A DNA stretch of 32,000 bases, from NCBI RefSeq assembly GCF_012571795.1, contig NZ_CP046222.1, forward strand, positions 210,819 to 242,818, given 5' to 3'. Positions 5,367 to 29,703 of this stretch are shown piece after piece (the stretch's first letter is position 1; every line of letters starts with the position of its first letter). Made by a program: the position numbers and the translations under genes. The notes beneath the pieces are model-generated. The model was not told the DNA's origin, did no database searches, and saw nothing but the letters and a program-made list of their open reading frames with translations. Origin of the DNA: Candidatus Saccharimonadota bacterium (GTDB lineage: Bacteria > Pseudomonadota > Gammaproteobacteria > Enterobacterales > Enterobacteriaceae).

Positions 5367-5773
5367 ATAACTCCCTAATTAATTTAATTTTAAGTAAAAA
5401 ATATAGATAATATTATTTTTTTACATTAAAAAAAGTTATTAAAAAATATACATTAATCTGAATCAATTACTTATATATTTTTATTTATATAAATAATTAT
5501 TTTATAAAACATAATATTTTTTATTATATATTTAAATAATTTCTATAATATACTAACTTTTTTTAGTAATGTAATCTATATAATTATGCATAAATTAAAT
5601 TATTATAATAAATATATATTAATTTTATTTTTTATAATAAATAAATTACATCATAACATATGAATAATTTAAAAATAATTATGTATAATAAAAATTAAAT
5701 ATAGTTTTATAAATAAATATTAAACATTTATAATATTTATTTAAATATATATTTCAAATAAAAAGAACATAAA

Positions 5774-12769: not shown

Positions 12770-13462
12770 ATGAATATCATAGATATGTTATGGAAATCTG
12801 TACTAATTATAAAATTAATATTATTAATATTAATAATAATGTTTATTATTTCATTATTTATTATTATACAAAAATATTTATTAATAAATAAAACATTATA
12901 TCTATTAACAAATTTTAAAAAAAAAATTTGGTCTGGTAATGATATATCTAATATATATAAAGAAATACAATTAAAAAAGGATGATATATTTGGTATTGAA
13001 AAAATTTTTTATAAAGGTTTTAAAAAATTTATATACACTTATAATTATATAACAAATATTCCTGAAATTATTATAAAAGATACAAAAACAGCAATTAATT
13101 TGTGTATAAAAAAAGAATTTTTGTTACTAAATTCCTATATGATATATTTAAATATTATTTATCTTATAAGTCAATATATTATATCACTTGGCAATGTTTA
13201 TATTTTATTTTATATAATAAAATTTCTTATAAATTTAAAATTTAAAATATTATTATATAATTTATTACCTAATTTAATTACCATAATAGTAATGATTATT
13301 ATGAGTTTAATTGTTAAAATTATTACTTTAATAAATTATAAAATTATTAATCAATATATTGAACATATAATATTAAAATATAATAATTTTACACAAGAAA
13401 TATTATCTATTTTTTATAAAAAAATTTTTTTAAAAAAAACATTTATAAATTATAATAAGTAA
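12770..13462 (+). CDS. tolQ: TolQ-like protein (MotA/TolQ/ExbB family). The ORF is intact, but it is an orphan and the C-terminal half is strongly diverged.
   Basis: 230 aa, the same length as E. coli TolQ. The N-terminal half is recognisable: [60 protein letters not shown]. It lies downstream of cydABX, as in E. coli. The TM2/TM3 signature residues are not conserved (see findings). Confidence 0.7.
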   Translation: [230 protein letters not shown]

Positions 13463-18462: not shown

Positions 18463-19956
18463 ATGAATAAAAATATAATACTTCCTGATATAGGCAATGA
18501 AGACATGAAGGTTACTGATATTTTAGTTAAAGAAGGAGAATTTATAACTAAAGATCAGAGTATTATTATTGTAGAAAGTGATAAAACTTCTATGGAAATT
18601 CCTACTAATTATTCTGGAATAATACAAAAAATTTTAGTATCTGTAGGAGATATAGTACATACAGATAGTTTAATATTAACTATTAAAGATAATAATACTA
18701 AAAATACAACACATAAAATACAAGAAGAAAATATTAATAAAATATTTTCTCAAAATATTTTAGTTCCCGATATAGGCACTAAAAGTATGGTAGTAAAACA
18801 AATTTTAGTGCAAAAAAATAGTACAATTAATAAAAATCAATCATTAATTATTATATATAACGACAATCATACAATTGAAATTGCATCTTTATATGCTGGA
18901 TATGTTAAAAAAATAAATATTAAAATTAATGATATCATTCATACAAATGATATTATAATTGTTTTATCTATAAATACTATAAATAATAATATAACTAATA
19001 ATCAAACATCATTTATTAAAACAAATAATATTATTAAAACAAATACTTTATATAATCAAGAACAATATTTTAATGCAACTCCTATTATAAGAAAAATGGC
19101 ACGGGAATTTAAAATTGATCTATCAGAAGTTAAGGGTAGTGGTAATAAAAATAGAATTACTAAAGAGGATATTTTAAAGTTTAGTACACAAAAAACAGAT
19201 ATTAATAATGTTAGTGAATTACATGCAAATATCAATAATTATAAACAATATGGTAATATAGAAAAAATATATTTAAATCATATACAAAAAATTACTAGTG
19301 TAAATCTTACAAATAACTGGAAAAATATTCCGCATGTTACACAGCATATAGAAGTTGATATTACACAATTAGAAAAATTTCGTGTTGAAAAAAATAAAGA
19401 ATTTCAAAATACTAATAGTAATGTTAAACTTACATTATTGAGTTTTATTATAAAAATATGTGCATATGCTTTAAAAAAATATCCATATTTTAATTCATCT
19501 TTGTTAGATAAAGAAACGTTAATTATTAAAAAGTACTATAATATAGGTATTGCTATTAATACTAAACAAGGTTTAATGGTTCCAGTAATATTTGATGTTC
19601 TTAATAAAAGTATTATCGATATTGCGCAAGAAATAATTCTTTTATCACAAAAAGCACAAAAAAAACAACTCATACCAAAAAATATGCAAGGTGGATGTTT
19701 TACTATATCTAATCTAGGTGGTATACGTAGTAATTTTTTTACTCCTATAATTAATGCTCCAGAAGTTGCTATTTTAGGTATATCACAGTCTATTATTAAA
19801 CCTGTATGGGATAGTCAAAAATTTATTCCTAAATTAATGTTGCCATTATCTTTATCTTATGATCATCGAGTAATAAATGGTGTAGATGGAATTATTTTTT
19901 TAAATTATATTTGTAATTTAATACATGATATTAGAAATATATTAATGTACAATTAA
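18463..19956 (+). CDS. aceF: Dihydrolipoyllysine-residue acetyltransferase (PDH E2). It has two lipoyl-type domains, the second lacking the lipoyl-lysine.
   Basis: 497 aa. Domain 1 carries VESDKTSMEIP (K41). Domain 2 carries IIYNDNHTIEIAS, with N135 at the lysine position. The E3/E1-binding domain is ATPIIRKMAREFKIDLSEVKGSG. The catalytic block is LSYDHRVINGVDG. An AAGGA Shine-Dalgarno is present, and the gene starts 11 nt after the aceE stop. Confidence 0.93.
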   Translation: MNKNIILPDIGNEDMKVTDILVKEGEFITKDQSIIIVESDKTSMEIPTNYSGIIQKILVSVGDIVHTDSLILTIKDNNTKNTTHKIQEENINKIFSQNILVPDIGTKSMVVKQILVQKNSTINKNQSLIIIYNDNHTIEIASLYAGYVKKINIKINDIIHTNDIIIVLSINTINNNITNNQTSFIKTNNIIKTNTLYNQEQYFNATPIIRKMAREFKIDLSEVKGSGNKNRITKEDILKFSTQKTDINNVSELHANINNYKQYGNIEKIYLNHIQKITSVNLTNNWKNIPHVTQHIEVDITQLEKFRVEKNKEFQNTNSNVKLTLLSFIIKICAYALKKYPYFNSSLLDKETLIIKKYYNIGIAINTKQGLMVPVIFDVLNKSIIDIAQEIILLSQKAQKKQLIPKNMQGGCFTISNLGGIRSNFFTPIINAPEVAILGISQSIIKPVWDSQKFIPKLMLPLSLSYDHRVINGVDGIIFLNYICNLIHDIRNILMYN

Positions 19957-19984: not shown

Positions 19985-21400
19985 ATGAATAAACAAATAA
20001 ATACAGAAGTAGTTGTTATTGGTGGTGGACCAGCAGGATATTCTGCTGCTTTTCGTTGTAGTGATTTAGGTATGAAAACAACAATTATAGAAAAGTATAA
20101 TAATTTAGGTGGAGTATGTTTAAATGTAGGATGTATTCCGTCTAAATCTTTATTACATATTTCTAATATTATTGAAGAAAATAATATATGTAATAAACAA
20201 GGTATTTTTAATAATAAAATTGAATTAAACATACAAAACATATTATTATGGAAAAAGAATATAATAAATAAATTAATTAATGGTCTAAATTTTTTAGCAA
20301 AAAAAAGAAATATAAATATTATAAATGGTACGGCAAAATTCATTACAGAAAATATTATAGAAATCAATAATAATAATAATATTAAACAGATTTTTTTTAA
20401 AAATGCAATTATTGCTACTGGTTCTAGATCAAATACATTACCAATAATTCCTAATGATAAACGTATATGGAATTCAACAGATGCATTAATGTTAAAAACT
20501 ATACCTAAAAAAATGTTAATTTTAGGAGCAGGAATTATTGGATTAGAAATGGCTACTATTTATAATACTTTAGGATCTAAAATAGATGTTGTAGAAATAT
20601 CAAAGGATTTATTACCAGAAATTGATCAAGATATTATTAATGTTTATAAAAAATGTATTCAACAAAAATTTACTGTATTATTAAACACACAAATTATATC
20701 TATAGATAACACAAAAGATATATTACAAGTACATATGACTAGTGATAATCAACAATCTATATATTCTAAATCGTATGACATTATTTTAGTAGCTATAGGT
20801 AGAATACCAAATTCTAATTATATTAATCAAGATTTTAATAAAATAAAAATGAATCATAAAAACTTTATTTGTGTGGATAATCAAATGAGAACTAATATTC
20901 CTAATATATATGCTATTGGTGATGTTATAGGACCTCCTCTTTTAGCACATAAAGGTATGCATGAAGGTCATTTAGCAGCAGAAGTAATTGCTGGTAAAAA
21001 ACATTATTTTATTCCAAAAATTATACCATCAATAGCATATACTAATCCAGAAATTGGTTGGGTAGGAATAACAGAAAAACAAGCTAAAATAGATAATATA
21101 GTATATAAAACATCATGTTTCCCATGGAATGCTTTAGGTAGAGCAATGACAAGTAATGCTGAATATGGTTTAACTAAATTAATTATAGAAAAATGTTCTA
21201 ATAGAATTATTGGAGGATGTGTTATAGGACCTAATGCAGGAGAATTATTAGGAGAAATTAGTTTAGCTATTGAAATGGGATGTGATATAGAAGATATAGC
21301 ATTAACAATTCATGCACATCCTACATTATATGAATCAATCGGATTGGCTGCAGAAATATTAACAGGTTCTATTACAGATATTTTAAATATTACTAAATAA
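19985..21400 (+). CDS. lpdA: Dihydrolipoyl dehydrogenase (E3)
   Basis: 471 aa. It has GGGPAGYSAAFRC..LGGVCLNVGCIPSK (FAD site plus redox disulfide), IGDV..PLLAHKG and the C-terminal HAHPTLYES. aceE-aceF-lpdA synteny is preserved. Confidence 0.95.
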   Translation: MNKQINTEVVVIGGGPAGYSAAFRCSDLGMKTTIIEKYNNLGGVCLNVGCIPSKSLLHISNIIEENNICNKQGIFNNKIELNIQNILLWKKNIINKLINGLNFLAKKRNINIINGTAKFITENIIEINNNNNIKQIFFKNAIIATGSRSNTLPIIPNDKRIWNSTDALMLKTIPKKMLILGAGIIGLEMATIYNTLGSKIDVVEISKDLLPEIDQDIINVYKKCIQQKFTVLLNTQIISIDNTKDILQVHMTSDNQQSIYSKSYDIILVAIGRIPNSNYINQDFNKIKMNHKNFICVDNQMRTNIPNIYAIGDVIGPPLLAHKGMHEGHLAAEVIAGKKHYFIPKIIPSIAYTNPEIGWVGITEKQAKIDNIVYKTSCFPWNALGRAMTSNAEYGLTKLIIEKCSNRIIGGCVIGPNAGELLGEISLAIEMGCDIEDIALTIHAHPTLYESIGLAAEILTGSITDILNITK

Positions 21401-21494
21401 ATATTATTTATTAATATTTAATGATATATATCAAATGATAATTATTTATTAATTATTATAATAAATTTTATTAATTAAATAGATATTAAAATAT

Positions 21495-22787
21495 ATGTTT
21501 AATTATAAAAAATTTAATTTAATATTAAATAATATTAATATTCCTGTTTTTAAAAAACAAAAATTTTATCTTAAAACATATTTTGATAAAATATCAAATA
21601 ATTATATTGATATTTCACAAGTCATTAATTCTGCCATAATCGATTGCCATAATAATGGTGGTGGTACAGTTATTATTCCTGATGGAGAGTTTTATTGTGG
21701 GCCTATACATCTTAAAAGTAATGTAAATTTATTTTTATGTGCAAATACTATTATAAAATTTTTTACTGATCCTAAAAAATATTTTAATGTTTTAACTAGA
21801 TGGGAAGGTATAGATTGTATTAATTATACTCCTTTAATTTATGCATATAATCAAACAAATATAGCTATTACAGGATATGGAACATTAGATGGACAAGCTA
21901 GTTTATATAATTGGTGGTCTTGGAAAAAAAATATTGATAATACAACTTTACAAGATAAAGATGTAAAATTATTAATTCACATGATGGAAAATAATATTCC
22001 AATTAATAAAAGAATTTTTGGATATAATCATTTTCTTAGACCTAATTTTATACAATTATATTTATGTTCTAATATTTTAATTACAGGAATAACTATTATT
22101 AATTCTCCTATGTGGGAAATACATCCATTATTAAGTAATAATATTTACATCAATAATGTGACTATTAATAGTATAGGTCCTAATAATGACGGTTGCAATC
22201 CAGAATCTTGTAGTAATGTTTTAATTGATAATTGTTATTTTAATACAGGAGATGATTGTATTGCTATTAAATCAGGTAAAAATAGTGATGGTAGAAAAAT
22301 TAATATAGCTTCAAAAAATATTATTATACAAAATTGTTTAATGAATAAAGGACATGGGGCAATTGTTTTAGGTAGTGAATGTACTGGTGGAATAAATAAT
22401 ATTTTTATAAGAAATTGCAAAACCATTGGTGAACAATTACAATCTTTTTTAAGAATTAAAAATAATGCTGTACGTGGTGGTATTATAAATAATATATATA
22501 TAACAGATATTAATATTCAATGTATTAAATCTAGTTTTTTAAATATTAATTTATTATATGATGAAGGACAAAATGGAACATATTTACCAAAAATATATAA
22601 TATATATATAAATAATATTTATATAAACTTATGTTACAGAGTTATAGATATAAATTCTTTTATACATTCATTTATTAATAATATTTTTTTGCAAAATAGT
22701 ATTTTTAAAAATATTAAATATCCTTCTAAAATTCAGATTTTTAATAAAGATAATTTAATTAATTTTAATAATGTAAAATTTTTATAA
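21495..22787 (+). CDS. Glycoside hydrolase family 28 protein (polygalacturonase / pectinase)
   Basis: 430 aa. All four GH28 signature blocks occur in the canonical order: GPNNDGCNP (D232, nt 22188-22190), TGDDCIAIKSG (D253/D254, nt 22251-22256), KGHGAIVLGSE (H287) and FLRIKNNAVRGG (R320/K322). The N-terminal GGGTVIIPDGEFYCGPIHLKSNVNL and TRWEGIDCINYTPLIYA blocks are typical of bacterial GH28 beta-helix enzymes. I see no hydrophobic signal peptide and no obvious Shine-Dalgarno. Confidence 0.85.
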   Translation: MFNYKKFNLILNNINIPVFKKQKFYLKTYFDKISNNYIDISQVINSAIIDCHNNGGGTVIIPDGEFYCGPIHLKSNVNLFLCANTIIKFFTDPKKYFNVLTRWEGIDCINYTPLIYAYNQTNIAITGYGTLDGQASLYNWWSWKKNIDNTTLQDKDVKLLIHMMENNIPINKRIFGYNHFLRPNFIQLYLCSNILITGITIINSPMWEIHPLLSNNIYINNVTINSIGPNNDGCNPESCSNVLIDNCYFNTGDDCIAIKSGKNSDGRKINIASKNIIIQNCLMNKGHGAIVLGSECTGGINNIFIRNCKTIGEQLQSFLRIKNNAVRGGIINNIYITDINIQCIKSSFLNINLLYDEGQNGTYLPKIYNIYINNIYINLCYRVIDINSFIHSFINNIFLQNSIFKNIKYPSKIQIFNKDNLINFNNVKFL

Positions 22788-23960
22788 TTATAATAATATA
22801 TCTTGTATAATATTATAATATATTTTGTATAAAACATAGATATCATTAATATTAACACATTCGTTAATTTTATGTATAGTAGAATTTTTTAATCCTAATT
22901 CTACTATTTGTGCTTTTGTTTTTATAATAAATCGTCCATCAGAAGTTCCGCCATCATTAATTAATGATGGAGTAATTTTATTAATTAATTTAATATTATG
23001 TTTAACTATATTTACTAAATTTCTTTTATTATAATGATTAATGTCATTATATGTACTTATAAAAGGTTTACCAGATAAAAACCAATCTAAATCATAAGTA
23101 GTAATATATTTTTTAATAATATTATTAATTTTATCTATTATATAAGAATAATGTATATTATGTGTATAACGAAAATTTATTTGTATGTTAATATTATTAG
23201 GAATAATATTAGTATTATTTTGTATAGCAGAAATAATATTAGTAATTTGCATACTAGTATTAGGTAAAAATAAATTATTTTTTTCCCATATAATATTTAG
23301 TAATTCTTGTAAAAATGGTATAGTAATATGTATAGGATTAATAGCAAGTTTATGATATGCTACATGTCCTTGTACACCATTAATTTTTAAAAAAATATTT
23401 AAAGAACCTCTCCTGCCATTTTTAATATTATCACCTATAATTTTATAGCTAGTTGGTTCTCCTAATATACAGTAATCAATAATTTCTTTTTGAGATATTA
23501 ATTTTTTTATAACTTTTATTGTACCATCTTCTGCTGTTCCTTCTTCATCAGAAGTAATTAAAAATGCTATTTTACCATGATAAACTTTATTTGTTAGGAT
23601 AAATAATTTAGCTGCAAATATCATTGCAGCTAAAGCACCTTTCATATCACATGCACCACGACCATATAAAATATTATTATTAATAGTTGCTTTAAATGGA
23701 TGATATTTCCATGATGTTATATTACCTGGAGTAACAACATCTGTATGTCCTGCAAAAACTAATGTTGGTGTAATATTTTTAATATAATTACAACTATGAT
23801 ATGCCCAAAAATTTTTGGTATTATTGATATTAATAATATCAATAAAAAAACCTAATTGTTTTAAAAATTTTATTAATAATGTTTGACACCCAGCATCATT
23901 AGGACTAATAGAAGGACATTGAATAATTTTTTGTGTAAATGATATAATTTCTTTTAACAT
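22788..23960 (-). CDS. dapE: Succinyl-diaminopimelate desuccinylase
   Basis: 390 aa. It is colinear with recalled E. coli DapE through SISPNDAGCQ, FAGHTDVV.PG, GRGACDMKGALAAM, FLITSDEEG, LGEPTS, KNGRRGSL, GVQGHVAY and TIHKINECV. Confidence 0.88.
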   Translation of the reverse strand: MLKEIISFTQKIIQCPSISPNDAGCQTLLIKFLKQLGFFIDIININNTKNFWAYHSCNYIKNITPTLVFAGHTDVVTPGNITSWKYHPFKATINNNILYGRGACDMKGALAAMIFAAKLFILTNKVYHGKIAFLITSDEEGTAEDGTIKVIKKLISQKEIIDYCILGEPTSYKIIGDNIKNGRRGSLNIFLKINGVQGHVAYHKLAINPIHITIPFLQELLNIIWEKNNLFLPNTSMQITNIISAIQNNTNIIPNNINIQINFRYTHNIHYSYIIDKINNIIKKYITTYDLDWFLSGKPFISTYNDINHYNKRNLVNIVKHNIKLINKITPSLINDGGTSDGRFIIKTKAQIVELGLKNSTIHKINECVNINDIYVLYKIYYNIIQDILL

Positions 23961-28437: not shown

Positions 28438-29703
28438 TTATATATTAGAAAAATTAAATTTTATTTTTTTTATTTTCATATTTTTTATTATATTATTTAT
28501 AATTTGATATTCTAATGTATGAATAGATATTAGTTGTAATAAATATTTATTTTTAAAAATATTATTTATATATTTTTTATTAATATTATGATTAATATAA
28601 TTTACATAAGTAATTTCTTCAGTAATCATATCTAATATTAGATTCATATTAGATTTAATATTCATTTTTATAATTATTTGATTAATAAAAATTTTAAATA
28701 TAATATATTCTTTTATATTTTTTAACAATAGTTTTTGATATAAAATATTTGTTAATATACAATATTCATTGTATTCTTTATGTAATTTTAATTGTATTAA
28801 TGTATTATTAGATATTGTAATATTATTAAAATTTTTTAAAAAAATTTTAATAAAATTATGTAAAATAGCATTACGTATAATTTTTTTTTTAATTAATTCT
28901 AATTGTTTAATAGTATTATTATATAATATTTTATATGTAAAATGATTATTTACATTATATATATCTTTAGATATATATACTTCTTTTTTAATTTCAATTT
29001 TTTTAATATGAATAATAAAATTTTGTTTTGTATTTAATATATTTTTATTAGGATAATTATTCAATACAATCTTATTTAAATAAAATTCTTCATTATGTTT
29101 TTTATTTATTAATGCTATTTCTAAATCTTGAATAATATAATTTTCTTTATCTAAAACAATTTTTTTATTTTTAAGGACAAGATTGTTTTTATTATTTAAA
29201 TATATATCTATTGTTACTCTATCATTTATACTAATTACATAATTATTACTAGATATTAACCATGTAATATTTTTTATATAATTTTGTTTTATAATATTTT
29301 TTATATCTTGTTCTTGAATATTAATATCAGGTATTTCAATTACCATATTATTTAATTGTTGTATATCAAACTCATGACATTGATAATAACAAACATTAAA
29401 TGTTAAATTATATCCATATTTATATAGTTTATAATAAAATTTTGGTTGACCTATAATATTAATTTTTTTTTCATATATAAATTTATAAAACATATCATTC
29501 ATTAATTTATATAATACTTTTTTATAAGTATCTTTTACAAATAATTTAGTTATTAAACTTAAAGGTGCTTTACCTTTGCGAAAACCTTTAATATTCTTAT
29601 TTTGGGATATAATTAGCAATTCTTTTTGAATATGATCCATAATTATTTTTGATATAATAGTCATATTCATTTCTTTACTATATATTGGTATGAAATTCAT
29701 CAT
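28438..29703 (-). CDS. tig: Trigger factor (highly diverged)
   Basis: 421 aa. The ribosome-binding TF signature GFRKGKAP sits at the expected distance from the N-terminus. The DRVTID block matches E. coli. The position between bolA and clpP is as in E. coli. An AAGGA Shine-Dalgarno lies 6 nt upstream. Confidence 0.8.
   Translation of the reverse strand: MMNFIPIYSKEMNMTIISKIIMDHIQKELLIISQNKNIKGFRKGKAPLSLITKLFVKDTYKKVLYKLMNDMFYKFIYEKKINIIGQPKFYYKLYKYGYNLTFNVCYYQCHEFDIQQLNNMVIEIPDINIQEQDIKNIIKQNYIKNITWLISSNNYVISINDRVTIDIYLNNKNNLVLKNKKIVLDKENYIIQDLEIALINKKHNEEFYLNKIVLNNYPNKNILNTKQNFIIHIKKIEIKKEVYISKDIYNVNNHFTYKILYNNTIKQLELIKKKIIRNAILHNFIKIFLKNFNNITISNNTLIQLKLHKEYNEYCILTNILYQKLLLKNIKEYIIFKIFINQIIIKMNIKSNMNLILDMITEEITYVNYINHNINKKYINNIFKNKYLLQLISIHTLEYQIINNIIKNMKIKKIKFNFSNI

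Follow-up and report, generated by a model that had tools for sequence, protein, structure and literature searches.

The stretch of DNA considered here, hereafter the window, comprises 32,000 nucleotides (nt) of contig NZ_CP046222.1 (assembly GCF_012571795.1, positions 210,819 to 242,818 of the forward strand) and contains, between lpdA and dapE, an open reading frame (ORF) encoding a polygalacturonase of glycoside hydrolase family GH28 (Table 1). The first start codon downstream of the preceding stop is the one at position 21495, so that the ORF scan excludes a longer reading. The product scores 83.4 bits against the Pfam profile PF00295 (Glyco_hydro_28; gathering cut-off 22.9, E = 2e-23), in a match that begins only at residue 182. 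In addition to the catalytic and substrate-binding motifs listed in Table 1, G233 is invariant across the alignment of 120 homologs, and a further 60 family-invariant residues beyond the catalytic set are intact. The ORF is a real, intact GH28 polygalacturonase gene with a full catalytic set. An earlier note on this DNA, made from its letters alone, had described an intact GH28 ORF of 430 amino acids in housekeeping surroundings; the ORF scan bears out its boundaries, the profile match stands well above the cut-off, gene annotation of the window confirms the surroundings, and the residue numbers it gave (D232, D253/D254, H287, R320/K322) are all exact. The R320 column shows one departure within the family: the cPG proteins (the chromosome-encoded polygalacturonases introduced below) of Donacia symbionts have lysine here (KIK; L002, L003, and L091, in two clusters), and the guts of D. 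crassipes digest galacturonic acid (GalA) oligomers well (PMC7289800) despite this substitution.

Table 1. Features of the polygalacturonase locus, in window coordinates (position 1 is the first letter of the window).
Feature	Position	Strand	Basis
cPG, GH28 polygalacturonase, 430 aa, intact	21495..22787	+	ORF scan, PF00295, 3JUR match, AF2 model
N230-N231-D232 codons (NxD motif; D232 is one of three catalytic Asp)	22182..22190	+	N230 and D232 invariant in 120 homologs
G252-D253-D254 codons (GDD, catalytic Asp pair)	22248..22256	+	Invariant in 120 homologs
G286-H287-G288 codons (GHG motif)	22350..22358	+	G286 and H287 invariant in 120 homologs
R320-I321-K322 codons (RIK, substrate-binding)	22452..22460	+	K322 invariant; R320 is Arg in 118/120 homologs
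Partly helical insertion, codons ~133-185, with invariant W140/W141/W143, outside the Pfam core match	21891..22049	+	Shared with exo-acting 3JUR
lpdA, upstream neighbor and locus anchor	19985..21400	+	TIGR01350, 461 bits; same neighbor in all related loci examined
dapE, convergent downstream neighbor	22788..23960	-	NF009557, 450 bits
Palindromic CRP/FNR-family operator-like box ATGATATATATCAA	21421..21434	.	9/10 to FNR consensus TTGAT-N4-ATCAA
Candidate -10 hexamer TATAAT, exactly 22 nt past the box	21457..21462	+	Identical spacing in 5/5 cPG-bearing genomes

A protein search covering ~5.8 billion proteins recovered a GH28 protein of the Enterobacteriaceae endosymbiont of Neohaemonia nigricornis that is 100% identical to the window's enzyme over 430 amino acids, and the neighboring DapE is likewise 100% identical to a protein of the same endosymbiont. 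Because both proteins are identical, the source was assigned to the N. nigricornis symbiont; on this sequence identity, the ORF is the chromosome-encoded polygalacturonase (cPG) of a reed-beetle symbiont of the Macropleicola clade. Reis et al. (2020, Nat Commun; PMC7289800) sequenced 26 reed-beetle (Donaciinae) symbionts, with chromosomes of 454-517 kb, a GC content of 19.6-23.3%, and one small plasmid each. They found cPG in eight of these (five Donacia, two Macroplea, and Neohaemonia), always at the lpdA–cPG–dapE locus, and their ortholog table (Supplementary Data 1) lists the polygalacturonase OrthoMCL cluster418 in the Neohaemonia symbiont (Nnig) as CDS 195. A plasmid-encoded polygalacturonase (pPG) was also described; both genes have fixed locations, are monophyletic, and were lost upon host switch to pectin-poor Poales (PMC7289800). 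According to the same study, the larvae, which feed on sap, receive essential amino acids from the symbionts, and the adults, which feed on leaves, receive pectinases. Activity was demonstrated for pPG, with dimers, trimers, and larger oligomers as its products, and gut homogenates with cPG degrade GalA oligomers better (PMC7289800). The presence of cPG tracks both the pectin content of host plants and symbiont retention in adult males, and the symbionts of adult beetles live inside cells as well as in the lumen of modified Malpighian tubules. A 2025 follow-up (PMC12508126) reports a modest increase in expression of the Macroplea mutica symbiont cPG in adults (log2 fold change 0.89).

Both cPG and its dual-role interpretation have been known since 2020, and the window does not hold an independent case of pectinolytic symbiosis. 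The earlier note had raised that possibility for a source outside the lineages it cited as precedents; the source instead belongs to one of them, the reed-beetle symbiont clade Macropleicola. Its view of a functional GH28 enzyme kept by host-level selection in an amino-acid-provisioning herbivore symbiont matches the published account, in which the dual nutritional and digestive partnership is already stated (PMC7289800), and its description of an intracellular bacterium holds for the symbionts inside cells while leaving aside those in the tubule lumen of adults. A pectinase in a ~0.47-Mb amino-acid-provisioning symbiont has been an established example of dual symbiosis since 2020, and its rediscovery from raw sequence mainly shows the soundness of the first reading. 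The increments over the published account are modest: an exo-type fold, a lost export signal, and a conserved promoter architecture of CRP/FNR type. Term searches of PMC7289800 and of its 2025 follow-up returned nothing on the absent export signal, on the exo-type fold, or on an operator upstream of the gene.

The lpdA–cPG spacer contains an operator-like box of the form ATGAT-N4-ATCAA, the core of which (TGAT-N4-ATCA, 21422-21433) occurs only once in the window, as compared with 1.35 expected occurrences. The box, 22 nt, and TATAAT are invariant in five of five cPG-bearing genomes and are followed by 32-37 nt to the ATG. In a box-anchored alignment, 16/16 element columns are invariant versus 12/76 flanking columns (Fisher P ~1e-10, for elements defined after inspection), and shuffled spacers yield the core box with a frequency of 2e-4 to 3e-3. 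The box is absent from all six cPG-less lpdA-dapE spacers examined. The pPG spacer of the M. mutica symbiont contains TTGATTTTAGACAA (8/10 to the consensus), then 22 nt and TATTAT, at the same distance from the ATG as in the cPG spacers. A sigma-70 scan also picks the candidate hexamer upstream of cPG. If TATAAT is the -10 element, transcription would start near 21469, ~26 nt upstream of the ATG, and the box would be centered at about -41.5, where FNR and CRP classically bind as activators of class II promoters.

CRP and FNR sites share the consensus core TGAT-N4-ATCA, and the box may instead be a CRP site that places cPG under catabolite-type control, as for the pectinases of free-living soft-rot Enterobacterales; in Dickeya, CRP activates pel, peh, and ogl genes. 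CRP is encoded in all 26 reed-beetle symbionts, and the upstream half-site ATGAT is an imperfect FNR half-site. However, the discriminating base is G/C in CRP sites (GTGA...TCAC), where all five genomes have A...A, and the downstream half, ATCAA, agrees fully with an FNR half-site. We know of no pectinase gene that is an FNR target in model bacteria. Across the 26 genomes it is fnr, not crp, that tracks the pectinases, fnr being present only in pectinase-bearing symbionts, including Nnig (PMC12508126; ortholog table of PMC7289800), at a location outside the window. Control by CRP is possible on these data but appears doubtful. FNR control of the pectinases was suggested in 2025 from gene co-occurrence alone; the regulator table of that study gives the GH28 regulators as "NA", and term searches of its text and supplements found no mention of a binding site or motif in a regulatory sense (PMC12508126). 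As far as the literature was searched, the box element is unreported, and its conservation gives sequence support to the published guess of FNR-controlled pectinases. Whether eroded symbionts still control host-beneficial genes is the wider question here, for which a box at a fixed distance from the -10 hexamer provides a concrete, testable cis-element.

An AlphaFold2 (AF2) model of cPG was built on 85 sequences and compared with the Protein Data Bank (PDB) using Foldseek. The model is nearly all beta-strand, with a mean pLDDT of 95.3 and a pTM of 0.94, and all of its top Foldseek matches are beta-helix GH28 enzymes; it predicts a right-handed parallel beta-helix, the fold that the earlier note had proposed to look for. 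The closest match is 3JUR, the exo-polygalacturonase of Thermotoga maritima (E = 2.6e-101, 343 bits, TM-score 0.93, root-mean-square deviation 2.1 Å, 38% identity), followed in both sequence and fold by the galacturonidase 5OLP (E = 4e-69, 237 bits, TM-score 0.84). The Yersinia exo-polygalacturonase 2UVE (E = 5e-12, TM-score 0.68) completes the three nearest solved structures, all of which are exo-acting. Endo-polygalacturonases match at E values of 1e-13 or weaker and TM-scores of 0.52-0.69, including Erwinia 1BHE at E = 2.8e-13. The alignment with 3JUR continues through the insertion at residues ~133-185 with a single 5-residue gap, and this region is confidently modeled, with helices at 140-143 and 153-165. 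As modeled, cPG is a selectively maintained right-handed beta-helix glycoside hydrolase. Because its nearest sequence and structural relatives are exo-acting, cPG is probably an exo-acting hydrolase of oligogalacturonides or polygalacturonate, and the exo-type fold fits the published gut-assay inference that it digests GalA oligomers. The earlier note had the enzyme act on the homogalacturonan of plant cell walls; the enzyme looks exo-acting on oligogalacturonides and not like the main pectin depolymerizer; the endo-type, Sec-exported polygalacturonase of this clade is plasmid-borne.

The same comparisons bear on a rival assignment, in which cPG would be an alpha-D-galacturonidase acting on backbone oligosaccharides of rhamnogalacturonan-I (RG-I) and not a homogalacturonan exo-polygalacturonase. 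Its model would be BT4155 of Bacteroides thetaiotaomicron, the substrate of which is RG-I fragments. The BT4155 model NF049892 is the best NCBIfam match to cPG, at 286 bits, and 5OLP ranks second overall; however, 286 bits falls far short of the equivalog cut-off of 800, and 3JUR is clearly the better match on both scores given above. The presence of cPG is also linked to better breakdown of pure GalA dimers and trimers in gut assays (PMC7289800), and we consider this assignment unlikely.

Unlike its free-living relatives, cPG has no export signal. In the alignment, the four symbiont cPG clusters have no residues ahead of the start of the mature domain, while 114 of 116 free-living homologs are extended at the N-terminus by 20 residues or more; the closest homologs have 52-67 additional N-terminal residues, many with Tat-like (twin-arginine translocation) motifs of the form SRRxLL or KRLLLKG. 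No hydrophobic core was detected at the cPG N-terminus (top 12-residue Kyte-Doolittle mean, 1.04), the AF2 model confidently places residues 4-13 in a helix that belongs to the fold, and the lpdA–cPG spacer of 94 bp does not allow the ORF to extend further upstream. The M. mutica symbiont's pPG differs in starting with a classical Sec signal peptide, MKILFQQTNKILFYICIFFLFSQKIFA, immediately followed by EDQR, and published expression constructs began at residue 2 for cPG and at EDQR, after the signal peptide, for pPG (PMC7289800). Term searches of the ortholog table of 26 genomes found SecY, SecE, signal peptidases I and II, and OmpC, and did not find any Tat component. The sequence features suggest that cPG, which lacks an export signal, is cytoplasmic. 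This raises the question of how a genome-eroded symbiont delivers a signal-less digestive enzyme to the gut; lysis or leakage of lumen-dwelling symbionts would free it, and this is the least secure step of our account.

A cytoplasmic location might alternatively indicate that cPG serves the symbiont's own carbon nutrition by cleaving imported oligogalacturonides, and the T. maritima exo-polygalacturonase, its closest solved relative, is intracellular. Against this, term searches of the 26-genome ortholog table found no uxaC (uronate isomerase), altronate enzymes, kdgK (KDG kinase), or exuT, nor any hexuronate or oligogalacturonide transporter, and the distribution of cPG follows host-plant pectin content and symbiont retention in adult males. 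We regard self-nutrition as very unlikely, and digestion for the host remains the preferred role.

Related symbiont loci were reached by a DapE protein search; a DapE query of genome contigs recovered no reed-beetle symbiont, all matches being to free-living Enterobacterales at 45-52% identity. Four other cPG loci (Macroplea appendiculata, Donacia provostii, D. proxima, and D. crassipes) share the order found in the window, aceE-aceF-lpdA-cPG-dapE(-)-lon(-)-clpX(-)-clpP(-), with minus signs marking the reverse strand. The Neohaemonia cPG is 63-68% identical to the Macroplea and Donacia orthologs. Among the symbiont cPGs, pairwise amino acid identity is 62.5-84.6% and dN (nonsynonymous divergence) is 0.08-0.27; Nei-Gojobori (NG86) dN/dS is 0.19-0.43, where dS (synonymous divergence; 0.23-0.93) is probably underestimated at a third-codon-position GC (GC3) of ~7% and the ratios are used only relative to neighboring genes. 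The ranges found for lpdA, dapE, and clpX in these genome pairs include the cPG values, and the match with those neighbors indicates ordinary purifying selection on cPG. Base composition is similar as well (cPG GC 0.199, GC3 0.067; seven neighboring genes GC 0.21-0.26, GC3 0.056-0.090).

In a neighbor-joining phylogeny of 120 sequences (100 bootstraps), the four symbiont cPG clusters are monophyletic (100/100), with Neohaemonia grouped with Macroplea (97) and the Donacia pair recovered at 100; the branching mirrors host tribes. The free-living sister clade is weakly supported (40/100; P0005, P0013, P0016, and P0021), the P0005 contig showed no pectin-utilization neighborhood, and the free-living donor lineage was likewise left unplaced by PMC7289800. 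By gene order and phylogeny, cPG is vertically inherited at a fixed lpdA-cPG-dapE locus. The earlier note had read flank-like composition as a sign of long residence as opposed to recent transfer, and had proposed phylogenetic and dN/dS comparisons; composition, host-congruent tree, fixed locus, and neighbor-like rates all agree with that reading. A decaying leftover that is still open, or a recent horizontal acquisition, might be imagined for a genome that is shedding genes, in which cPG has been lost several times among relatives and activity has been shown in vitro for no ortholog, but both were rejected as highly improbable given the intact catalytic and 60 other family-invariant residues, a rate of protein change equal to that of essential neighbors, flank-like composition, the same locus with a congruent phylogeny across host genera, and the deletion of lost copies to a spacer of 91-313 bp with no lingering long pseudogene.

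The cPG-less lpdA-dapE spacers measure 313 bp in D. tomentosa, 109 in D. versicolorea, and 101 in D. clavipes, and 91, 174, and 199 bp in Plateumaris braccata, P. sericea, and P. rustica, respectively. Part of the P. braccata spacer (L088 4683-4773) translates to LFKWEVIKCINYSPLISYLY, which resembles cPG residues 96-118 (LTRWEGIDCINYTPLIYAY) in the same orientation and scores 30.8 bits against them, barely more than the best of 200 shuffles (30.4). In the P. rustica spacer (L092 3683-3881) this element recurs at 26.2 bits, and it forms a hairpin between convergent genes; it may be a cPG relic kept as a terminator, or a chance resemblance. Apparent matches to a GH28 relic in the D. tomentosa spacer lay within noise, and a sliding 48-mer scan of DNA identity for relics was dropped as non-specific in AT-rich DNA.

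The joint explanation that we favor, with a probability of roughly 0.8, is that the ORF is the cPG of the N. nigricornis symbiont, an exo-acting, signal-less enzyme released by lysis and transcribed from an FNR-box promoter. Under this explanation, the plasmid-encoded, Sec-secreted endo-type polygalacturonase would make oligogalacturonides, cPG would take galacturonic acid off their ends, and for the adult host, which eats leaves, the two enzymes together would complete the digestion of pectin; the symbiont itself would be unable to use the galacturonic acid product. As the N-terminal signal of its free-living relatives, probably of Tat type, has apparently been lost, cPG would be made in the symbiont cytoplasm and would most likely get to its substrate when extracellular symbionts in the Malpighian-tubule lumen lyse or leak. 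Transcription most likely begins ~26 nt upstream of the ATG, with the CRP/FNR-type box near -41.5 presumably bound by the symbiont FNR, the one regulator confined to pectinase-bearing strains. A stronger proposal, which we advance tentatively and at less than even odds, is that cPG and pPG form a small regulon driven directly by FNR through class II promoters, with cPG, its Tat signal gone in a cell that seems to have no Tat system, delivered only by lysis or leakage. If true, pectinase output would be tied to the FNR signal, classically low oxygen, which might distinguish, for example, the tubule lumen from the inside of host cells, and part of the symbiont population would act as a sacrificial enzyme carrier.

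Several observations weigh against this explanation. The recombinant D. crassipes and M. mutica cPGs were not recovered active, heterologous expression having failed (PMC7289800); no cPG ortholog has ever been shown to be active, and the function of the Neohaemonia enzyme is predicted from its sequence. Its exo action is likewise read from structural neighbors and not from pocket geometry or reaction products. For the gut assays, whole guts were frozen and bead-beaten (PMC7289800), and the results cannot show cPG acting outside the bacterium: bead-beating would free a cytoplasmic enzyme, so that these assays are silent on its site of action. That Tat and uronate catabolism are absent is read from terms in an annotation table and not from a genome scan, and expression of the M. 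mutica cPG differs only 1.9-fold between adults and larvae (PMC12508126). As to the promoter, the upstream half-site is ATGAT and not TTGAT, and the core is shared with CRP sites, so that CRP could bind. Sigma-70 sites are not enriched in the window (17 found versus 24 expected), TATAAT-like hexamers being common at 20% GC, and FNR boxes with at most one mismatch are not enriched either (8 found versus 6.4 expected); no regulon-level claim is drawn from this window-wide scan. In addition, a perfect FNR box, TTGATGAAAATCAA, lies inside an 887-amino-acid ORF (1-2664) on the M. mutica symbiont plasmid NZ_CP046219.1 (L085 1847-1860).

That plasmid ORF is unannotated in the gene table of the plasmid collection, and its box could reflect chance or an internal regulatory site. 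Within the window, the only other intergenic near-match to the FNR consensus is TTAATCTGAATCAA (5453-5466), which has one mismatch that loses the G and sits where the amino-acid permease gene and sucA diverge, in a spacer of 407 bp.

The genes upstream of cPG are dapF', uvrD, corA, the amino-acid permease gene, sucAB, cydAB, tolQ, parE, and aceEF-lpdA; downstream are dapE, lon, clpX, clpP, tig, bolA, and suhB. The earlier note had drawn on the co-occurrence of dapE, dapF, metA, and sucAB; dapE, dapF', and sucAB are present, and metA was not found among the annotated window ORFs of at least 100 amino acids. ARAGORN detected no tRNA or tmRNA genes in the 32 kb. The cPG stop codon (22785-22787) directly abuts that of dapE (22788-22790), with no spacer or terminator between them, and the M. 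appendiculata symbiont shows a 6-nt overlap of the two ORFs.

Several neighboring genes show signs of divergence. tolQ (12770-13462, + strand) is an orphan and strongly diverged (112 bits versus an equivalog cut-off of 403) in a region of 11-16% GC; it is followed by parE, with no tolR, tolA, tolB, or pal after it, and may be what is left of the Tol-Pal operon, either in decay or put to another use. tig (28438-29703, - strand) is also very diverged (TIGR00115, 99.9 bits versus a cut-off of 180; local GC ~12-15%); in L002 and L003, both loci of Donacia symbionts, no tig lies between clpP and bolA, and the published ortholog table (PMC7289800) records the gene in Neohaemonia and Plateumaris only. 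AceF comprises 497 amino acids in the window (18463-19956), 419 in the M. appendiculata symbiont (L001 3169-4428), and 485-510 in the other symbionts examined, differences consistent with gain or loss of lipoyl domain repeats. In the P. sericea symbiont (L090 1005-3443), lon appears as two ORFs of 574 and 205 amino acids versus a single one of ~777, which suggests a frameshift, a sequencing error, or incipient pseudogenization.

Among known systems, the T. maritima exo-polygalacturonase 3JUR shares with cPG the eight conserved GH28 residues (N, D, D, D, H, G, R, and K) and the absence of any aligned N-terminal signal region before the mature domain; it differs in being a tetrameric enzyme of a hyperthermophile at only 38% identity, whereas the symbiont enzyme is known from its sequence and a model. 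BT4155 (5OLP) resembles the predicted cPG in being exo-acting and removing terminal GalA, but is only ~30% identical, with the NF049892 score far under its cut-off. The cPG promoter resembles E. coli class II FNR promoters in its 9/10 consensus box and in a spacing to a perfect -10 hexamer that would center the box at -41.5, and departs from them (TTGAT) in having one ATGAT half-site and a start predicted from sequence. Finally, the pPG of reed-beetle symbionts and the polygalacturonase of Stammera capleta from tortoise beetles are, like cPG, symbiont-encoded GH28 enzymes for host pectin digestion; pPG, however, belongs to a GH28 lineage other than that of cPG, is ~52-54% identical to the Stammera enzyme, and is matched by genes on Ralstonia and Rhizobium plasmids.

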